This document shows positions 3,513 to 14,261 of a stretch of DNA of 64,000 bases, piece by piece. Every line of letters starts with the position of its first letter. The stretch's first letter is position 1. The position numbers and the translations under genes are program-made. The notes beneath the pieces are model-generated. The model searched no databases, was not told the origin of the DNA, and saw nothing but the letters and a program-made list of their open reading frames with translations. The DNA comes from an uncultured Verrucomicrobiae bacterium (lineage in GTDB: Bacteria > Verrucomicrobiota > Verrucomicrobiia > Chthoniobacterales > UBA10450): positions 128,001 to 192,000 of the forward strand of contig CAWFGO010000001.1 of assembly GCA_963815455.1 (NCBI GenBank), in the 5' to 3' direction.

Positions 3513-4574
3513 ATGGATTTTTTCTTCATCATCACGTCACTGCTGAAAATTCTCGGGATCCTTTTTGTCATAATTCTGCCGATGGTTTCTTACAGCGTGT
3601 ATGCCGAACGCCGCGTCAGCGCGCTAATTCAAGACCGGGTCGGACCGAACCGAGTCGGGCCATCGGGATTGCTTCAGCCAATCGCGGACATGTTCAAATT
3701 GCTGCTCAAAGAGGATTTCACACCGCGGCATGTGAACACGTTTTATTACTGGCTCGCGCCGGCGCTGGCGATGATGCCGGCCATTATTACCATCGCGGTT
3801 GTGCCGTTTGGCAGCACGCTTTTCGGCGTCCCGATGGTGATTGCCGACGTCAATGTTGGCGTTCTTTTCATCTTCGCCATCGCGTCGCTCGGCGTTTACG
3901 GGATCGTCATTGCCGGTTGGGCATCGAATTCAAAGTATCCGTTTCTCGGTGGAATCCGTTCCAGTTCGCAAATGCTTTCCTACGAGCTCTCCCTCGGGCT
4001 CGCCGTTATTCCGATCTTCATGCTCGTTGGAAATCTCCGGCTGACCAGTGTCGTTCAGTATCAGATCGACAACGGCTGGTTCATCGTCCCGTTCGTCGGT
4101 GACTGGATGAACCCATGGAAATGGCTCCTCGCCGTTCCGATGATAGTTTCGTTCGTAGTTTTCACGATCGCCATTTTCGCCGAAACAAATCGGTTGCCGT
4201 TCGATCTGCCCGAAGCCGAACAGGAGCTCGCCGGCGGTTATCACACCGAATACAGCTCGATGAAGTTCGCCCTCTTTTTTCTCGGTGAATACGCAGCCAT
4301 GATCACCGGCTCGGCGATTATCGTGACCTTATTTTTCGGTGGCTGGCATTTTCCCGGAATCCCGAATGGATCGCATGGATGGATTTTCGGTCTCATCAAC
4401 ATCGCGGTGTTTTTCACCAAAGTCGCCCTGCTGCTCTTTTTCTTTATCTGGGTTCGCTGGACCCTGCCCCGGTTTCGTTACGATCAATTGATGCGACTCG
4501 GCTGGCTCTTCTTTTTCGAAATCGCGCTGGTAAACATTTTTATTGTCGCGGGAATCCTGGCATTTGCCCACTAA
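3513..4574 (+). CDS. nuoH: NADH-quinone oxidoreductase subunit H
   Basis: ERRVSALIQDRVGPNRVG and AETNRLPFDLPEAEQEL motifs. Confidence 0.97.
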   Translation: MDFFFIITSLLKILGILFVIILPMVSYSVYAERRVSALIQDRVGPNRVGPSGLLQPIADMFKLLLKEDFTPRHVNTFYYWLAPALAMMPAIITIAVVPFGSTLFGVPMVIADVNVGVLFIFAIASLGVYGIVIAGWASNSKYPFLGGIRSSSQMLSYELSLGLAVIPIFMLVGNLRLTSVVQYQIDNGWFIVPFVGDWMNPWKWLLAVPMIVSFVVFTIAIFAETNRLPFDLPEAEQELAGGYHTEYSSMKFALFFLGEYAAMITGSAIIVTLFFGGWHFPGIPNGSHGWIFGLINIAVFFTKVALLLFFFIWVRWTLPRFRYDQLMRLGWLFFFEIALVNIFIVAGILAFAH

Positions 4575-4649
4575 ACACACGAAATATCACGAAACCGTTT
4601 AGAACTAACTTGATCACATTTTTTGTGTCCTTTCGTATGTTTCGTGGGC
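4566..4649. repeat. Family A inverted-repeat element (GCCCAC-GAAACACACGAAAT ... TTTCGTGTGTTTCGTGGGC); supplies the nuoH stop codon
   Basis: Same ends as elements at 5922-6021, 6355-6831, 8705-8813 and 14181-14261. Confidence 0.85.
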
Positions 4650-4660
4650 AATTCTGATTC

Positions 4661-5191
4661 ATGACCGTTACCGTTACACGACCCAATCTAAACTGGCGCG
4701 AGCGATTATATCTGCCCGCAATCGTGGCCGGGCTCGCCATTACCTTTAAGCATTTCAAGAACATGTTGCTCGGCCGGACCAAGGTCACGATGCAATATCC
4801 CGAGCAAAAATGGGACGCGAACATGCCCGATTATTATCGCGGCGCGCCTGCGCTGGTCCGCGACACCGACGGTCGCGTCCGATGTGTGGCCTGCCAGCTT
4901 TGCGAATTCATTTGTCCGCCGCGCGCGATCACCATCGTTCCGGACGAGATTTCTTCGACCGACCGGTTCGCCAAGGTCGAGAAATACCCGATCGAGTTCG
5001 ACATCGACATGATCCGCTGCATTTACTGCGGGATGTGCGAAGAAGTTTGTCCCGAGCAGGCGATCTTTCTGCGCAAAGATTACGCCATCACCGGGTTTAC
5101 CCGCGAAGAAATGGTGCATCACAAAGACAAGCTAATCGAAATCGGCGGCGTCATGCACGGGGTCGTTTTGAAATGGAACGCAAAGAAGTAA
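4661..5191 (+). CDS. nuoI: NADH-quinone oxidoreductase subunit I
   Basis: Two CxxCxxCxxxCP [4Fe-4S] motifs; TMQYPEQ. Confidence 0.97.
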   Translation: MTVTVTRPNLNWRERLYLPAIVAGLAITFKHFKNMLLGRTKVTMQYPEQKWDANMPDYYRGAPALVRDTDGRVRCVACQLCEFICPPRAITIVPDEISSTDRFAKVEKYPIEFDIDMIRCIYCGMCEEVCPEQAIFLRKDYAITGFTREEMVHHKDKLIEIGGVMHGVVLKWNAKK

Positions 5192-5194
5192 GAC

Positions 5195-5314
5195 TTGTCA
5201 TCCCGAACCGCGAAGACGGTGAGGGATCTCGCTATTACCTGAAATTGTCGAGCCAAGGCAAGTCGACGACTTGGGCTCCGGCTGTGAGATCCTTCACTTC
5301 GTTCAGGATGACAA
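5195..5314. repeat. Family B palindromic element (TGTCATCCYGA ... GAGATCCTTC..TTCG.TCAGGATGACA)
   Basis: Related copies near 12962-13025, 23852-24036, 26450-26481, 36576-36656, 42826-42995, 45693-45817, 53925-53966 and 54656-54728. Confidence 0.85.
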
Positions 5315-5320
5315 AGCGGC

Positions 5321-5356
5321 GGCGGCGTAATGCACGGCGTCGTCCTAGAATGGAAT
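5321..5356 (+). repeat. Second, diverged copy of the nuoI 3' end (GGVMHGVVLEWN vs GGVMHGVVLKWN at 5144-5179)
   Basis: Direct codon-by-codon comparison. Confidence 0.85.
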
Positions 5357-5373
5357 ACGACAAATGAGTTCGG

Positions 5374-5406
5374 AAATCCGAAATTCGAAATCCGAAATCC
5401 GAAATT
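5374..5406 (+). repeat. Heptamer tandem repeat (AAATCCG/AAATTCG)x4
   Basis: aaatccg aaattcg aaatccg aaatccg aaatt. Confidence 0.85.
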
Positions 5407-5413
5407 AAAGAGA

Positions 5414-5917
5414 ATGTCGCCTTTTTTATTTTGGACTTTCGCAATGCTGATGCTGGTCTTCGGCGCGGCCGTTGTCATCAATCGCAATCCGGTGGCGAGC
5501 GCGCTGAGTCTGGTCGTTTCGTTTCTCGGGCTGGCCGCCCTCTTTATGTCGCTCAATGCCTATTTCATCGGCATCATTCAAGTGCTCGTTTACGCCGGCG
5601 CGGTGATGGTCCTGTTCCTTTTCATCATCATGCTTCTCCATCTTCGCATCGAGGAACGGCGCCGGATCAACTGGACGGCGTCAGCGGGCGGAATTGTCGT
5701 CGCGCTTGTTTTGCTTGTTCAAATCTTTTTCGTGATTGGAAATTTCGAGCCCGCTCGGCAAGCGATTCCGCCACTCACAGCATCGACAATTGATGATGTC
5801 CACAACATCGGCGCTCTGCTTTTCAGCAATTACAATCTTCCTCTGCAAATCATCGGGGTTCTCATTCTCGTGGCGACCATCGGCGTCGTTCTCCTGAGCA
5901 AACGCGAACCAAGATAG
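5414..5917 (+). CDS. nuoJ: NADH-quinone oxidoreductase subunit J
   Basis: NPVASALSL and IQVLVYAGAVMVLFLFIIMLL motifs; start placed at MSPFLFW. Confidence 0.95.
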   Translation: MSPFLFWTFAMLMLVFGAAVVINRNPVASALSLVVSFLGLAALFMSLNAYFIGIIQVLVYAGAVMVLFLFIIMLLHLRIEERRRINWTASAGGIVVALVLLVQIFFVIGNFEPARQAIPPLTASTIDDVHNIGALLFSNYNLPLQIIGVLILVATIGVVLLSKREPR

Positions 5918-5921
5918 TTTA

Positions 5922-6021
5922 GCCCACGAAAATACGCGAAATGACACGAAAACAGAAAATGTCAGGAAATTGCCGATGTTTATCTCTGACATTTTCGCGT
6001 TCTTTCGAGTGTTTAGTGGGC
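5922..6021. repeat. Family A inverted-repeat element (empty)
   Basis: gcccacgaaaatacgcgaaatgacacgaaa ... tttcgcgttctttcgagtgtttagtgggc. Confidence 0.85.
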
Positions 6022-6034
6022 ACAAAACAATAAC

Positions 6035-6355
6035 ATGATCACGCTGGGCGATTATCTCATGGTCAGCGGCGCGCTGTTCGCCATCGGATTCGCCGGCGTG
6101 ATGCTGCGACGCAATCTCATCATTATTCTGATGTCGTTGGAGTTGATGTTGAACGCATCAAATCTATCTCTGGTAGCTTTCTCGCGATTCCGGATCGATC
6201 CCGCCGGCTTGCCGAATTACAGCGCTCAGGTCTTTGTCTTTTTTATCATCACCGTTGCCGCGGCCGAAGTTGCTGTCGGGCTGGCCATCATCGTCGCTCT
6301 CTATCGCGCCCGCCAAACGACGCATGTGGAAGATCTCAGGAGTTTGAAATTTTAG
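6035..6355 (+). CDS. nuoK: NADH-quinone oxidoreductase subunit K
   Basis: [17 protein letters not shown] and [11 protein letters not shown] motifs. Confidence 0.97.
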
Positions 6356-6831
6356 CCCACGAAACACACGAAATGACACGAATGGAAGAAAAGGGAGAAC
6401 TCGTTTACAAAGATGAAAGCTACGCCAGCATCGGCGCGTGTTTCGTCGTCTACAAAGAGAAAGGGCTGCGGATTTCTCGAGCCGGTTTATCACGAGTGCC
6501 TGGAAATCGAGTTCGAATCCCAAAGGATCCCGTTTCGGTCAAAACCACCCCAAACGCTTCAATATCACGGGCGGACCCTTATCCAGACATTTCATCCCGA
6601 TTTCATTTGCTATGATAAGATCATCCTCGAAATCAAAGCTGTCTCCGTACTATGCGATGAGCATCGCGCTCAGGTGCTTAACTATCTCAGCGCGACGGGA
6701 TGCAAATTGGGGCTGCTCGTCAATTTTGGTCATTGGCCAAGAATCGAATACGAACGCCTCCTTCCTAGAAAACATGAACCCGCCGATTTCCGTCTCTGAA
6801 AATTTCGTGTCCTTTCGTGTGTTTAGTGGGC
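6355..6831 (+). mobile_element. Family A element carrying a GxxExxY gene
   Basis: Family A inverted ends enclose the GxxExxY ORF; a second copy of the nuoK 3' end follows. Confidence 0.7.
6382..6799 (+). CDS. GxxExxY family protein (PD-(D/E)XK nuclease-like), one frameshift near 6460
   Basis: MEEKGELVYKDESYASIGACFVVYKEK joins GCGFLEPVYHECLEIE ... PDFICYDKIILEIKAV ... AQVLNYL ... GLLVNFG. Confidence 0.88.
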
Positions 6832-6836
6832 AAAAA

Positions 6837-6902
6837 ATGACTCTTCTTTGCCGTGCCCGACAAACAACCCACGTGGAAGATCTGCGTAGCCTGAAATTTT
6901 AG
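6837..6902 (+). repeat. Mini-ORF (21 aa) containing a synonymously recoded duplicate of the nuoK 3' end; abuts the nuoL ATG
   Basis: 6852-6902 encodes [16 protein letters not shown], identical in peptide to 6305-6355. Confidence 0.9.
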
Positions 6903-8705
6903 ATGGAAGCCGAGAACCTTGTTCCCTGGATCGTGTTGCTCGCGCCGCTGGCCTCGGCGGTCGTGATCACGCTCTTCGCCCGTCGGTCACAAGGGTTGAG
7001 CAGTTTTCTTTCCGTCACTGCTGTGCTCGGGAGTTTTGCCGGGAGCTGCTGGATTTTTCAGCGCACCGGCGATTTCACAGTTGAAATCAATTGGATCGAC
7101 ATCAGCGGCGGGCTCAAGGCGCCGCTCGGGCTCACTCTCGATTATTTGTCCAAGACAATGCTGGTTCTCGTTTCTGGTGTGGGAGCGATTATCCACATTT
7201 ATTCGCTTGGTTACATGCGCGGCGAAGAGGGCAAATCGCGTTATTTCGCCGGTCTGTCGCTCTTCATGTTCGCCATGCTCGGGATCGTTCTGGCCAACAA
7301 CTTCGTGATGTTATTTATTTTTTGGGAGCTGGTGGGATTCACCTCCTACGTGCTCATCGGTCACTGGTTCGATCGTCCGGCGGCGGCAGACGCGGCCAAG
7401 AAGGCGTTCATCACCAATCGTCTCGGCGATTTCGGATTTATGCTTGGCATCCTGATGATTTGGGTGCCGACCGGCTCGGTCGTTTTTCCCGACATCAACG
7501 AGCGATTGTCGATCCTGACGAACAATCCCGCGTATCTGACGGTAGCCGCGCTTCTGATCTTCTGCGGCGCAGTCGGAAAATCCGCGCAATTTCCGCTGCA
7601 CGTCTGGTTGCCAGACGCGATGGAAGGTCCCACGCCGGTCTCAGCGTTGATCCACGCGGCGACGATGGTTGCCGCAGGCGTTTACATGCTGGCCCGCGTC
7701 GCGTTCATCATTCAAGCGTCGGAAACAGCGCTCATGGTCATTGCCTGGATCGGGACGATCACGGCGCTCATGGCCGCGCTGATTGCCACCCAACAGGACG
7801 ACATCAAGCGAGTCCTGGCTTATTCCACGCTTTCGCAGCTCGGTTACATGGTGATGGCCATCGGTCTGGCCTCGAGCGAAGCAGCGATGTTTCACTTGTT
7901 CACCCACGCGTTTTTCAAAGCGCTCCTGTTCCTCGGCGCCGGCTCGGTCATCATCGCGCTGCATCACGAACAGGACATTTGGGAAATGGGCGGCCTCTGG
8001 CGCAATCTCAAGATTACGTTTGTCACATTTCTCATCGGCGCGTTGGCCCTCATGGGTTTGCCGCCGTTCAGCGGTTTTGTCAGCAAGGATGCGATCCTTG
8101 CTCTGGCCTACGAGCATAACAAATCGATCTTCGTGCTCGCCCTGGGCACCGCGTTCTTGACCGCGTTTTATGTCACTCGTTTGCTCATGGTTGTTTTTCT
8201 TGGGCACCCGCGCGGACACGCGGCCCGGGTCAGCAAAGAATCGACGTTTGTCATGACGGGGCCGCTCGTCGTTCTCGCGCTCCTCGTGATTGCGAGCAGT
8301 TTCGCTGCGTTCAACAATCATTTCCTTGTTCTTCCAAGCCAGGGCGCATTTTTAGAGACCGTTCCTTTGTTCGCCACCGGCGCGCTCGTCTTCGGCGTCG
8401 GGCTCGCCTTTCTGTTTTATCGCGGACGCGCCACCGAAGCTGTCTACGTCGATCTTCTCCGCCGCCGTTTTTACATCGACGATTTTTATCAATGGCTCAT
8501 CAACTGGACCCAGGAACTGCTCGCCCGCGTCGCTGCGTTCTTCGATCGCTGGATAATCGACGCCGGCGCGGTCCGCGGAGTGAGCGGCGGCACCTGGGGA
8601 GTCGGCGCGCTGTTGCGATTGGTTCAAGTAGGTAATTTGCAGGCTTACGCGTTTCTCTTCGGCCTGGGCATCGTCGCGCTCATTTATTTTGCCGTTTTCC
8701 GATAG
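6903..8705 (+). CDS. nuoL: NADH-quinone oxidoreductase subunit L
   Basis: GKSAQFPLHVWLPDAMEGPTPVSALIHAATMV; HLFTHAFFKALLFL. Confidence 0.97.
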   Translation: MEAENLVPWIVLLAPLASAVVITLFARRSQGLSSFLSVTAVLGSFAGSCWIFQRTGDFTVEINWIDISGGLKAPLGLTLDYLSKTMLVLVSGVGAIIHIYSLGYMRGEEGKSRYFAGLSLFMFAMLGIVLANNFVMLFIFWELVGFTSYVLIGHWFDRPAAADAAKKAFITNRLGDFGFMLGILMIWVPTGSVVFPDINERLSILTNNPAYLTVAALLIFCGAVGKSAQFPLHVWLPDAMEGPTPVSALIHAATMVAAGVYMLARVAFIIQASETALMVIAWIGTITALMAALIATQQDDIKRVLAYSTLSQLGYMVMAIGLASSEAAMFHLFTHAFFKALLFLGAGSVIIALHHEQDIWEMGGLWRNLKITFVTFLIGALALMGLPPFSGFVSKDAILALAYEHNKSIFVLALGTAFLTAFYVTRLLMVVFLGHPRGHAARVSKESTFVMTGPLVVLALLVIASSFAAFNNHFLVLPSQGAFLETVPLFATGALVFGVGLAFLFYRGRATEAVYVDLLRRRFYIDDFYQWLINWTQELLARVAAFFDRWIIDAGAVRGVSGGTWGVGALLRLVQVGNLQAYAFLFGLGIVALIYFAVFR

Positions 8706-8813
8706 CCCACGAAACACACGAAATGACACGAAAAGGAGAAACAGATCTGATTTACGGCGACTCGCTGATTCCTATTTCTGAAAATTCCGTGTCTTTTCGT
8801 GGGTTTCGTGGGC
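8705..8813. repeat. Family A element, internally deleted GxxExxY-element derivative
   Basis: Family A ends. The interior reads GETDLIYGD (cf. GELVYKD) and tctgaaaattccgtgtc (cf. tctgaaaatttcgtgtc near 6795-6811). Confidence 0.75.
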
Positions 8814-8838
8814 AAGCAAATCCCCTCCTCTTTCTCTG

Positions 8839-10320
8839 ATGCTTCTTTTCCTCATATTTTGCCCGATCGTTGCGGCGTTCGTGATCATGGCCGGCGCGCC
8901 GGCCCGAAAAACGGCGTTGCTCGCTTCGTGGTTGATGCTCGCGTCCGCGGCCGCACTCTTCGCTCAATTCGCGCAGCTCGAACCGAAGTTTCAGTTTGTC
9001 AGTTCATTTCCAATTTCTCCCGAGTTGCATCTCGGCTTTACCGTTGGGCTCGACGGTTTGAGCCTGATCATGGTGCTGCTGGCCGCCATCGTCACGGTCG
9101 CGGCCGTCTGGTTCGCCGGTAAGATCGACAATCACGAAAATGCATTCTACGCCTGCCTGCTTTTTATTTCCGGCGGCGCGATCGGAGCATTTTCGTCGCT
9201 CGATTTGTTTTTCTTTTATGCCTTTCACGAACTCGCGCTCATCCCGACATTCCTGCTGATCGGAATCTGGGGGAGCGGAAATCGCGTGGCCGCGGCGTGG
9301 AAGATCACAATTTATCTCGCAGTCGGTAGCTTCATCTTGCTGCTTGGCTTGATCCTGCTTTACCAAAGCGTCCCGGCCGCATCGCGGAGTTTCGATATTC
9401 GCGAGCTACAGGCTGCGATCGCGACGCGGCAGATTCCGGCGAATGCGCAGCACAACATTTTCCTGCTCCTGCTTGTCGGCTTCGGAATTCTCGTCTCGCT
9501 GTTTCCGTTCCATACCTGGGCGCCGGAGGCGTACGCATCCGCGCCCGCCCCGGCGGCAATGCTGCATGCCGGCGTCCTGAAAAAATTCGGGCTTTACGGT
9601 TTGCTGCGGATTGCCCTCCCGCTGCTCCCGGAAGGAGCGCGGCACTGGAGCCATCTGTTAATCGTGCTGCTGCTCGGGAATATCATTTACATCGGGTTGG
9701 TCACCATCGCGCAAAAACGACTCGATTGGATGCTTGGTTACTCCAGCGTGATGCACATGGGTTACATTTTTCTCGGGATCGCCAGTGCCAACGTTCTCGG
9801 CACCACTGGGGCCGCGACTCTGATATTCGCGCACGGGCTTTCCATCGCGTTGCTGTTCGCGCTGGCGGGGGAAATTCGCACCCGTACCGGCACGCTCGTG
9901 TTCAGCGATCTCGGCGGTCTCGCGAAAGTGATGCCATTCGCCGGTCTCGCCTTCGGGCTCGGCGCATTCGCGGCCATCGGTCTTCCCGGCTTCGCCAACT
10001 TCGCCGGCGAAATCATGATCTTTTTCGGCGCGTTCCGAACCGGCTGGGATATGACGCGGTTCCACACGTTTCAAATCGCGACCGCGCTGGCGCTCTGGGG
10101 CGTGGTGATCTCAGCCGTTTATATGCTCCGCGCGTATCGAAATGCATTCATGGGTCCGCCGAATGAGCGCTGGAACAAGCTTGTCGATCTTCGTCCCGGC
10201 CTGCGCATCCCGATCGCGTTGCTGGTCGCCGCGCTTCTCTGGATCGGATTTTATCCCCAATCGTTTATCCGCATTCTTGCGCCGGCGCCGAGCACTTATT
10301 CCGCATCCGCAAAGCCATGA
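8839..10320 (+). CDS. nuoM: NADH-quinone oxidoreductase subunit M
   Basis: GLDGLSL, FPFHTWAPEAYASAP and YSSVMHMG motifs. Confidence 0.95.
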   Translation: MLLFLIFCPIVAAFVIMAGAPARKTALLASWLMLASAAALFAQFAQLEPKFQFVSSFPISPELHLGFTVGLDGLSLIMVLLAAIVTVAAVWFAGKIDNHENAFYACLLFISGGAIGAFSSLDLFFFYAFHELALIPTFLLIGIWGSGNRVAAAWKITIYLAVGSFILLLGLILLYQSVPAASRSFDIRELQAAIATRQIPANAQHNIFLLLLVGFGILVSLFPFHTWAPEAYASAPAPAAMLHAGVLKKFGLYGLLRIALPLLPEGARHWSHLLIVLLLGNIIYIGLVTIAQKRLDWMLGYSSVMHMGYIFLGIASANVLGTTGAATLIFAHGLSIALLFALAGEIRTRTGTLVFSDLGGLAKVMPFAGLAFGLGAFAAIGLPGFANFAGEIMIFFGAFRTGWDMTRFHTFQIATALALWGVVISAVYMLRAYRNAFMGPPNERWNKLVDLRPGLRIPIALLVAALLWIGFYPQSFIRILAPAPSTYSASAKP

Positions 10321-14091: not shown

Positions 14092-14261
14092 GCCCGCGAA
14101 TTACGCGAATGGGCGCGAATGAAAAACGGATTGATCCGCCAAACACGCCAAAAGACCCCAAATAGGAACGGATTTGCTTCCCCCCTAAACACACTAAAAG
14201 GCGCGAAAATGTTCCAGGCACTTGTGATAAACCGGTTCGTCATTTCGTGTGTTTCGTGGGG
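14092..14261. repeat. Cluster of family A-like arms, including a minus-strand mini element with a GxxExxY gene fragment
   Basis: Reverse complement of 14211-14238 matches 6479-6506 at 25 of 28 nt (EPVYHKCLE vs EPVYHECLE). Confidence 0.85.

Follow-up and report, generated by a model that had tools for sequence, protein, structure and literature searches.

Prophages, ICEs and their decayed forms are flanked by attL/attR repeats of a gene 3′ end, with the insert restoring the tail that stays in use. REP and REPIN sequences with RAYT transposases are hairpin repeats that lie between genes, in many gene-less and few gene-carrying copies. In homology-facilitated illegitimate recombination, one end is homologous and the other is joined at a microhomology of a few bases (PMC3240628). 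Fungal mitochondrial genomes contain mobile-ORF gene hybrids, among them Glomus atp6, atp9, cox2 and nad3 and Allomyces macrogynus atp6, in which a gene core is followed by a foreign C-terminus, an endonuclease ORF and, further downstream, the native C-terminus; in at least one hybrid the DNA differences are solely synonymous, and the native copy clusters with the host's relatives while the inserted copy falls elsewhere (PMC3630166, which cites the Allomyces case).

Here we analyze a 64,000-nt stretch of bacterial DNA (the window), in which the end of nuoK is encoded twice, on either side of a small cassette carrying a GxxExxY gene. The window's genome is referred to as G000, a same-genus relative as G001, and individual loci by L numbers.

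Results

The nuoK tail is encoded twice

The nuoK gene (6035..6355, + strand; NF004320 NuoK, 4.5e-33) is complete and functional-looking at 106 aa, and its product is 73-89% identical to the main-copy NuoK of 38 relatives. Its last 16 codons constitute the upstream, in-use copy of the tail (6305-6355, + strand; CGCGCC...TTTTAG), and the same 16-residue peptide is encoded again at 6852-6902 (+ strand; CGTGCC...TTTTAG; z 23.5). This downstream copy is collinear with nuoL (6903..8705, + strand; NF005141, 3.2e-191), its TAG at 6900-6902 adjoining the nuoL ATG at 6903. The copies share 41 of 51 bases, with a longest identical run of 11, and all 10 differences, which fall in nine of the 16 sense codons, are synonymous, bearing out the claim of the initial annotation that the nuoK end is re-encoded with nine synonymous codon changes. 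Silent changes make up 22-26% of the single-base changes available in this stretch, giving P ~6e-7 for ten synonymous differences out of ten; in simulations the peptide survived unchanged in 1 of 200,000 sets of 10 random changes. When the whole of G000 was scanned for genes whose last 16 residues are re-encoded 20-900 nt downstream, 47 matches were obtained, against 0 for a control with reversed peptides, so the tail repeat is not due to chance. A paralogue was ruled out as the source of the second tail, since the second nuoK is only 49% identical.

Soil-metagenome contigs from four runs of one soil study, at ~93-95% identity, bridge cassette, downstream tail and nuoL (X3 record 18, 6353-6967; X4 record 25, 6473-7447; X1 record 5, 6846-7384). 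Because these contigs are independent, the arrangement is not an artefact of the G000 assembly. Among the joints listed, none connected the nuoK body straight to the downstream tail, from which we draw no inference.

The cassette and its gene-less derivatives

Between the two tails lies, as had been claimed, a GxxExxY gene boxed by inverted repeats; the arms measure 28 nt and contain three CACGAA subrepeats each. The left arm (6355-6382, + strand; 0 mismatches to the core), with its subrepeats ~9 nt apart, starts on the G of the nuoK stop codon; the right arm (6804-6831, - strand) has 2 mismatches. The GxxExxY / PDDEXK_3 gene itself (6373..6799, + strand) appears in two frames in the assembly (6373-6465 and 6413-6799). 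It matches TIGR04256 at 2.5e-32 (111.7 bits against a cut-off of 35, covering profile positions 15-115 of 116) and PF13366 PDDEXK_3 at 2.4e-31 (108.9 bits against a cut-off of 22), and an intact ortholog in L005 scores 125 bits. GFLEPVY, PDF and EIK are all present, corresponding to G-x-x-E-x-x-Y, D and E-x-K, which we take to be the functional motifs of the family. The frame breaks at the A-run 6460-6462, where one extra A puts the N-terminus (6373/6382-6465) in another frame; contigs of related soil strains have one base fewer at 6460, within that run, which makes an assembly error the probable cause of the frameshift. The only other GxxExxY gene of G000 (contig C2, 225118-225458) is likewise split between frames. 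Around it (C2:225060-225500, L002/L003), the cassette follows a gene whose stop lies inside the left arm (CACCACGAATGA), and the frame split falls at a T-run.

No other cassette ORF has a family match. A sequence search of the PDB with the GxxExxY protein returned no relative, and our literature search on GxxExxY, PF13366, PDDEXK_3 and TIGR04256 returned no account of the cassette as a mobile element. The function of the family is given as 'Unknown' (PMC3424549). Matches to TIGR04256 occur in 106 of 121 genomes of the same bacterial family. The inverted-repeat-boxed architecture, with arms of ~9-nt subrepeats and accompanying gene-less copies, is present here and recurs widely: of 30 other family loci, 29 have their best inverted pair flanking the ORF at its two ends, usually built as an array of ~9-nt subrepeats, with L058 weak.

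Three gene-less derivatives of the cassette family lie close by, one between nuoL and nuoM (8705..8813) and two further ones at 4566-4649 and 5922-6021, with RNA folds at z -7.2, -5.6 and -5.4. Together with a hairpin copy at 14234-14261, these gene-less copies place the family in the nuoH|I, nuoJ|K and nuoL|M spacers; the window holds 8 of the genome's 19 repeat-arm matches, and the nuoH stop codon lies inside a repeat arm (GCCCACTAA). An Rfam search of 4400-9000 gave no match, and a promoter and terminator scan gave nothing above shuffles.

A putative relic nuoL start precedes the downstream tail

Five nucleotides past the right repeat, the stretch 6837..6855 (+ strand; ATGACTCTTCTTTGCCGTG) aligns with the nuoL starts of G010, G001, L064, L094 and L079, and appears to be the relic 5′ end of a nuoL allele; in cassette-bearing relatives, nuoL itself starts 5-10 nt after the right repeat. 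The alignment switches from nuoL-like to nuoK tail, at position -51, in the 4-base microhomology CGTG (6852..6855, + strand), which occurs both in the relic nuoL start, as CCGTGG, and in the nuoK tail, as CGTGCC, and which alignment suggests is an illegitimate junction. An alternative reading takes 6846-6851 as a diverged nuoK Leu-Tyr. The presence of a nuoL stub followed by a tail tightly joined to nuoL suggests that a cassette-bearing haplotype, reaching to nuoL +19, was joined to a cassette-free one, starting from nuoK -51. In soil relatives the linker that follows the right repeat differs and is ~30 nt longer (according to the joint table, 6831->6280 with 16 other letters), which points either to a second event or to a CGTG junction that is not original.

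The initial annotation had noted both the TAG-ATG abutment and an ATG at 6837 belonging to the downstream copy. Both are present, but 6837-6855 does not belong to the nuoK copy and instead resembles a relic nuoL start. A remnant nuoL start codon is the better explanation for the ATG at 6837 and makes translation initiation there plausible. This ATG opens a putative 21-codon ORF (6837..6902, + strand; no Pfam match) in which the relic nuoL start is fused to the nuoK tail and which may help translation of nuoL; any of the three frames through the downstream tail would stop 0-14 nt before the nuoL ATG.

The insertion site is old and its cassettes are exchanged

Across 103 related junctions, comprising 28 related genomes and 75 soil-metagenome loci, homologous cassettes occupy the nuoK|nuoL site in 18. 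Among the 28 genomes, a cassette directly follows the nuoK stop in 6, other inserts are found in 2 and the genes are tightly joined in 19 (-12 to +10 nt); the same-genus G001 has a 124-nt gene-less cassette remnant at this position. The 75 metagenome loci divide into 12 with a cassette, 17 with inserts of 62-288 nt and 46 that are tight. Over all 65 tight, cassette-free junctions, the nuoK-nuoL gap is -12 to +14 nt. The eight occupied genomes (seven relatives and G000) all belong to one host clade of 11 (SH-aLRT 98). The 19 cassettes form two clades, both with SH-aLRT 99, whose members alternate across the host tree, L064 (clade B) standing beside L079/84/85 (A), for instance, and G013 (B) beside G000 (A), which indicates that cassettes have been swapped between lineages at the nuoK|nuoL site. 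On these trees the insertion site is old, and its cassettes are exchanged between lineages. Trees and counts include L021 from the unpublished genome G008; no conclusion rests on G008, G003 or G015.

The ends of the G000 cassette are 81/78% identical to those of G009, versus 70/51% to the G001 remnant. A metagenome scan for close relatives with NuoL 1-200 yielded none above 77% identity, and a search of sequencing-run indices gave only small shares, 0.09-0.10.

Two close hosts, L094 (2490-3000, occupied) and L008 (empty), can be compared directly, with TAA-[cassette]-AAC-TAATCCT-ATG in the former versus TAG-TGATCCG-ATG in the latter; this pair hints that the cassette inserted immediately behind the stop codon, perhaps accompanied by a 3-base repeat. 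Separately, at least 10 relatives carry a second GxxExxY gene inside the nuo operon, at a fixed distance of ~4.1-4.6 kb upstream of nuoK (for example G009:C1:1123435-1123773, G006:C6:373393-373731 and G021:C4:418413-418751), making the operon a recurrent home for such cassettes.

Tail duplication is not characteristic of the element

Among 39 occupied junctions, a downstream tail is found in G000 (z 23.5) and in L011 (z 13.7, 40 nt), with L012 marginal (z 3.2); in 36 of the 38 others, nuoL follows the insert with no tail. The 40-nt remnant in L011 carries non-synonymous changes. Around GxxExxY cassettes at other sites, flank duplication was seen in only 1 of 29 (L055, z 9.4), and that one is of another kind. 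Being rare both at the same site (one clear and one marginal case in 38) and elsewhere (1 of 29), the tail duplicate is not, on these comparisons, a property of the GxxExxY element, and a general duplication of flanks at GxxExxY loci, as implied at the outset, is not borne out.

L055 was rejected as a tail duplicate because it is a tandem repeat of the cassette right end plus the downstream gene start; across its positions 1200-2000 lie an internally deleted cassette and the downstream gene start, followed by a full cassette and a second occurrence of that gene start. L036 (z 4.0) was likewise discarded as a flank duplication, its 13-nt match lying far from the cassette ends. Two familiar mechanisms were rejected for the nuoK tails themselves: a transposon target-site duplication, because the repeats are 51 nt long, 80% identical and absent at most copies, and integrase-made attL/attR, because there is no recombinase gene and no identical core. 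Nor was a consistent 'immune' recoding of the tails beside cassettes seen across the tails compared.

Which tail is native

At the 10 sites that differ between the copies, matches to the upstream versus the downstream copy number 8 and 1 for G011, so that 8 of 10 discriminating sites fit the in-use copy, 0 and 6 for L104, and 2 and 5 for both G001 and L138. The 18 cassette-bearing junctions match the upstream copy on average at 5.39 sites versus 2.44 for the downstream copy, and the tight junctions at 3.95 versus 3.52. The tails nearest to the upstream copy, those of L079 and L085, both stand beside cassettes of the same element clade, and G013, one of the nearest hosts of G000, favours the upstream copy 5:3. 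The downstream copy is closest to L104, whose tail ends in ...DLRSLKF (9 differences versus 15 for the upstream copy). The upstream tail also differs from G001 at 15 of 48 positions.

Sliding windows along nuoK point to a change of affinity within the gene. Compared with G001, G000 shows 5-10 differences per 45 nt over positions 1-240, rising to as many as 15 at the tail; compared with L005/L012, it shows 7-15 differences per 45 nt, falling to 5-7 at the tail. Positions 1-240 are thus closest to G001 and 241-321 to L005/L012, with a putative switch near position 240 (left 24:11, right 7:14; Fisher P=0.014, uncorrected, and with a G001 tail that is unusually diverged). The 3′ part of nuoK at 6275..6355 (+ strand) is accordingly a putative imported tract whose left edge is approximate. 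In the first 250 nt of nuoL, G000 is closest to G001 in windows 46-225.

The initial annotation took the downstream copy as ancestral and the upstream copy as having come with the element, and proposed comparison with insert-free relatives. The first idea gains from the tight join to nuoL, which resembles the tight gaps of insert-free junctions, and from the genus-like alleles of G001, L104 and L138; the cassette-free relatives themselves are neutral, 28 being nearer the upstream copy and 27 nearer the downstream copy, with 10 ties. The second fits G011, the averages at cassette-bearing junctions and L079/L085, but is not a rule across cassettes. The sites being few and the genomes related to one another, support is moderate that the downstream tail is native and that the upstream tail arrived with the element.

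Similar duplicates flank unrelated inserts

A second tail duplicate occurs within the same operon, where the nuoI end (to 5191) and a copy at 5321-5356 flank a hairpin repeat (GTCATCCCGAAC... family; 5192..5320; RNA fold z -4.5) that is unlike the cassette repeats. Relative to the working nuoI tail of G001, the downstream copy differs at 2 of 36 positions and the in-use tail at 6 of 36. Outside the last ~45 nt, sliding windows along nuoI revealed no clear switch, and genome-wide BLAST pairing of the nuoI-side repeat arms produced 11 arm matches and 0 pairs.

Several further features of this region were noted. The nuoI end at 5140-5191 reads GGVMHGVVLKWNAKK*, and its copy (GGVMHGVVLEWN...) is decayed at the end and open into nuoJ. 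At nuoI 4823-4920 (positions 163-260), G000 is closest to G009, with 3-5 differences per 45 nt versus 8-13 for G001, which suggests another small recombination tract in the nuo operon. In nearly all family relatives the nuoI-nuoJ spacer (L005-L031) holds an 80-140-nt inverted array of 7-9-nt subrepeats, in many sequence types, of which the window retains a single arm at 5369-5413 (CGGAAATCCGAAATTCGAAATCCGAAATCCGAAAT).

Elsewhere in G000, at least five further tail duplicates, all among the 47 matches of the genome-wide peptide scan, flank toxin-antitoxin-like cassettes (L144-L148: C2:89962-90612, C5:179577-180243, C1:373492-374056, C3:281046-281594 and C3:650303-651054). The duplicated tails belong to genes for L11, one unnamed product, a VIT1 protein, a nucleoside transporter and an aldehyde dehydrogenase, and the inserts, of 550-750 nt, carry Unstab_antitox, DUF2442, PemK, HigB or DUF4258+DUF2283 genes. 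The repeats are 72-243 nt long and 78-92% identical where measurable; the nucleoside-transporter tail differs at 19 of 48 bases and leaves no measurable nucleotide repeat. Differences are mostly synonymous, and which copy is native varies by locus.

Discussion

A probable recombination scar between two haplotypes

We favor, at a probability of roughly 0.62, a reading in which recombination brought together a haplotype with the cassette and one lacking it, through a homologous crossover on the left and an illegitimate joining on the right. The two tails would be orthologous nuoK ends from two related lineages, set side by side by recombination. The incoming fragment would have run from the 3′ end of nuoK through the GxxExxY cassette into the donor nuoL, of which it included the first ~19 bases, and the recipient would have been a haplotype with nuoK and nuoL still directly joined. 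On the left, homologous crossover may have occurred inside nuoK near codon 80; on the right, CGTG would have served as the illegitimate joint, 51 bases ahead of the stop codon of the resident nuoK. nuoK would now end in the imported tail, the resident tail would be stranded behind the cassette while still abutting nuoL, and the 21-codon ORF would be a by-product in which the old nuoL start codon is fused to the resident tail. The purely synonymous differences would then reflect a past in which both tails, each in a separate lineage, had served as functional gene ends until they were joined.

The anatomy of the locus, the scarcity of the duplicate, the swapping of cassettes among lineages and the presence of comparable duplicates at unrelated cassettes are directly observed; the direction of transfer and the mechanism of joining are what we infer from sequence comparison. 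The putative switch within nuoK, the G001-like 5′ part of nuoL and the G009-like cassette ends favor import of tail, cassette and nuoL stub, and the L011 remnant, with its non-synonymous changes, fits a dead downstream copy. Such a history would predict cassette-free alleles in which a downstream-type nuoK end is joined to a G000-type nuoL, and cassette-bearing alleles in which an upstream-type tail precedes a nuoL starting ATGACTCTTCTT....

Several observations speak against this recombination account, among them the leaning of G013 towards the upstream copy, the neutrality of the cassette-free relatives, the uncorrected breakpoint statistic, the longer linker of the soil relatives and the possible Leu-Tyr reading of 6846-6851. 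The upstream copy encodes the same lineage-specific L-R-S as the downstream copy, and its nearest nucleotide relatives encode I-T/S/D-S; a donor tail with the LRS residues was not found among the relatives compared, and otherwise two convergent replacements would be needed. The lineage assignments rest on 10 sites. The G001 cassette remnant, which is of the same cassette type, follows a downstream-like tail, so the genus is not simply cassette-free. Finally, at C3:281046 the polarity is reversed, with the in-use copy native (G001 matches upstream 18, downstream 6).

Alternative explanations

The structure would be identical had the transfer run in the opposite direction, with a resident that already carried the cassette receiving a nuoK tail plus nuoL fragment from a cassette-free relative, the fragment being homologous in nuoL and joined illegitimately at CGTG on its left. 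The G001 remnant at the site and the occupancy of 8 of the 11 host-clade genomes are in its favor, but the apparent similarity switch falls inside nuoK near position 240, the first 250 nt of nuoL and the downstream tail look genus-native, and it is the upstream tail that is least G001-like (15 of 48 differences), all of which makes this direction unlikely.

Quite unlikely, in our judgment, is a duplication in place, as a long target-site or tandem duplication whose two copies are held to the same peptide for the sake of a 21-residue product or of nuoL translation. It would account for the lineage-specific L-R-S kept by both copies, for the 0 non-synonymous changes, for a relic ATG placed behind an A-rich spacer that relatives use as a start region, and for the retention of the downstream copy in soil relatives. 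It leaves the nuoL-like segment 6837-6855, which belongs to no repeat, unaccounted for, 36 of the other 38 occupied junctions manage well with no tail, and the L011 copy is decaying. Coupling would moreover constrain an ORF and not 16 particular residues, every frame stopping 0-14 nt before the nuoL ATG; the sole linker ATG in soil relatives appears to be out of frame with the tail, a weak point; and a copy under no constraint would be expected to accumulate changes more quickly than silent positions in a functional copy do.

A homing-type unit, in which the GxxExxY nuclease cuts a cassette-free nuoK-nuoL and repair brings in the nuclease gene together with a cleavage-resistant nuoK tail, has the appeal that its layout equals that of the mitochondrial gene hybrids (PMC3630166), that the PD-(D/E)XK motifs are intact and that one site-associated cassette lineage is exchanged between hosts. 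We consider it very unlikely, given the rarity of the tail duplicate at nuoK|nuoL, the lack of consistent recoding in cassette-side tails, the gene-less family copies at other junctions and the same duplicates flanking nuclease-free cassettes; the function of the family, too, is listed as 'Unknown' (PMC3424549). A more general proposal, which we hold to be quite doubtful, is that recombinase-free cassettes such as GxxExxY boxes and toxin-antitoxin pairs spread between related bacteria as units of replacement gene tail plus cassette, the nuclease of the GxxExxY box opening the cassette-free junction in its case and the tail repeats serving as homology for excision and re-entry; if true, such cassettes would be the bacterial counterpart of mitochondrial mobile ORFs.

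A consensus merged from the reads of a cassette-bearing and a cassette-free strain is barely credible: the assembly is long-read-style with single-base indel errors (the frameshift at 6460), but short contigs obtained independently in four runs of a separate data set span the arrangement, L011 has the same layout in another genome, and assemblers do not join at 4-base junctions.

Significance and comparison with known systems

Under the haplotype-recombination reading, the scar would record a selfish cassette passing between related soil bacteria inside an essential operon and leaving that operon undamaged, the incoming DNA giving a working gene end while the old end stayed attached to the next gene. 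The resulting pattern of tail, insert and differently spelled tail is searchable, and because it also occurs at no fewer than five toxin-antitoxin-like insertions, it could mark recombination-driven gain of small accessory genes generally. Such duplicates should not be read as a mechanism of the GxxExxY element. For GxxExxY cassettes, the analysis adds a single insertion site traced across a bacterial family, at which closely related hosts have exchanged cassette types.

Set against the described systems, the locus has something in common with each. Like attL/attR elements, it has direct repeats of a gene 3′ end, here that of nuoK, flanking an insert that supplies the in-use tail, but it has no integrase, its insert measures ~480 bp and a nuoL fragment lies at the junction. 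Like REP/REPIN, the cassette family consists of hairpin repeats between genes in gene-less and gene-carrying copies, although the gene inside the repeat pair is of the PD-(D/E)XK type and not an HUH enzyme. The putative CGTG junction, which joins non-homologous positions, and the putative crossover inside nuoK resemble homology-facilitated illegitimate recombination; that process is known from laboratory transformation and conjugation, whereas the nuoK case is read from a natural scar. With the mobile-ORF hybrids the locus shares its order of parts, namely core, inserted C-terminus, nuclease ORF and native C-terminus. It differs from them in being bacterial and chromosomal, in having a predicted PD-(D/E)XK nuclease in place of LAGLIDADG or GIY-YIG, and in an ORF that lies between inverted repeats and lacks an in-frame fusion; the C-terminal duplicate, moreover, does not travel with the GxxExxY ORF and is the exception at nuoK|nuoL.
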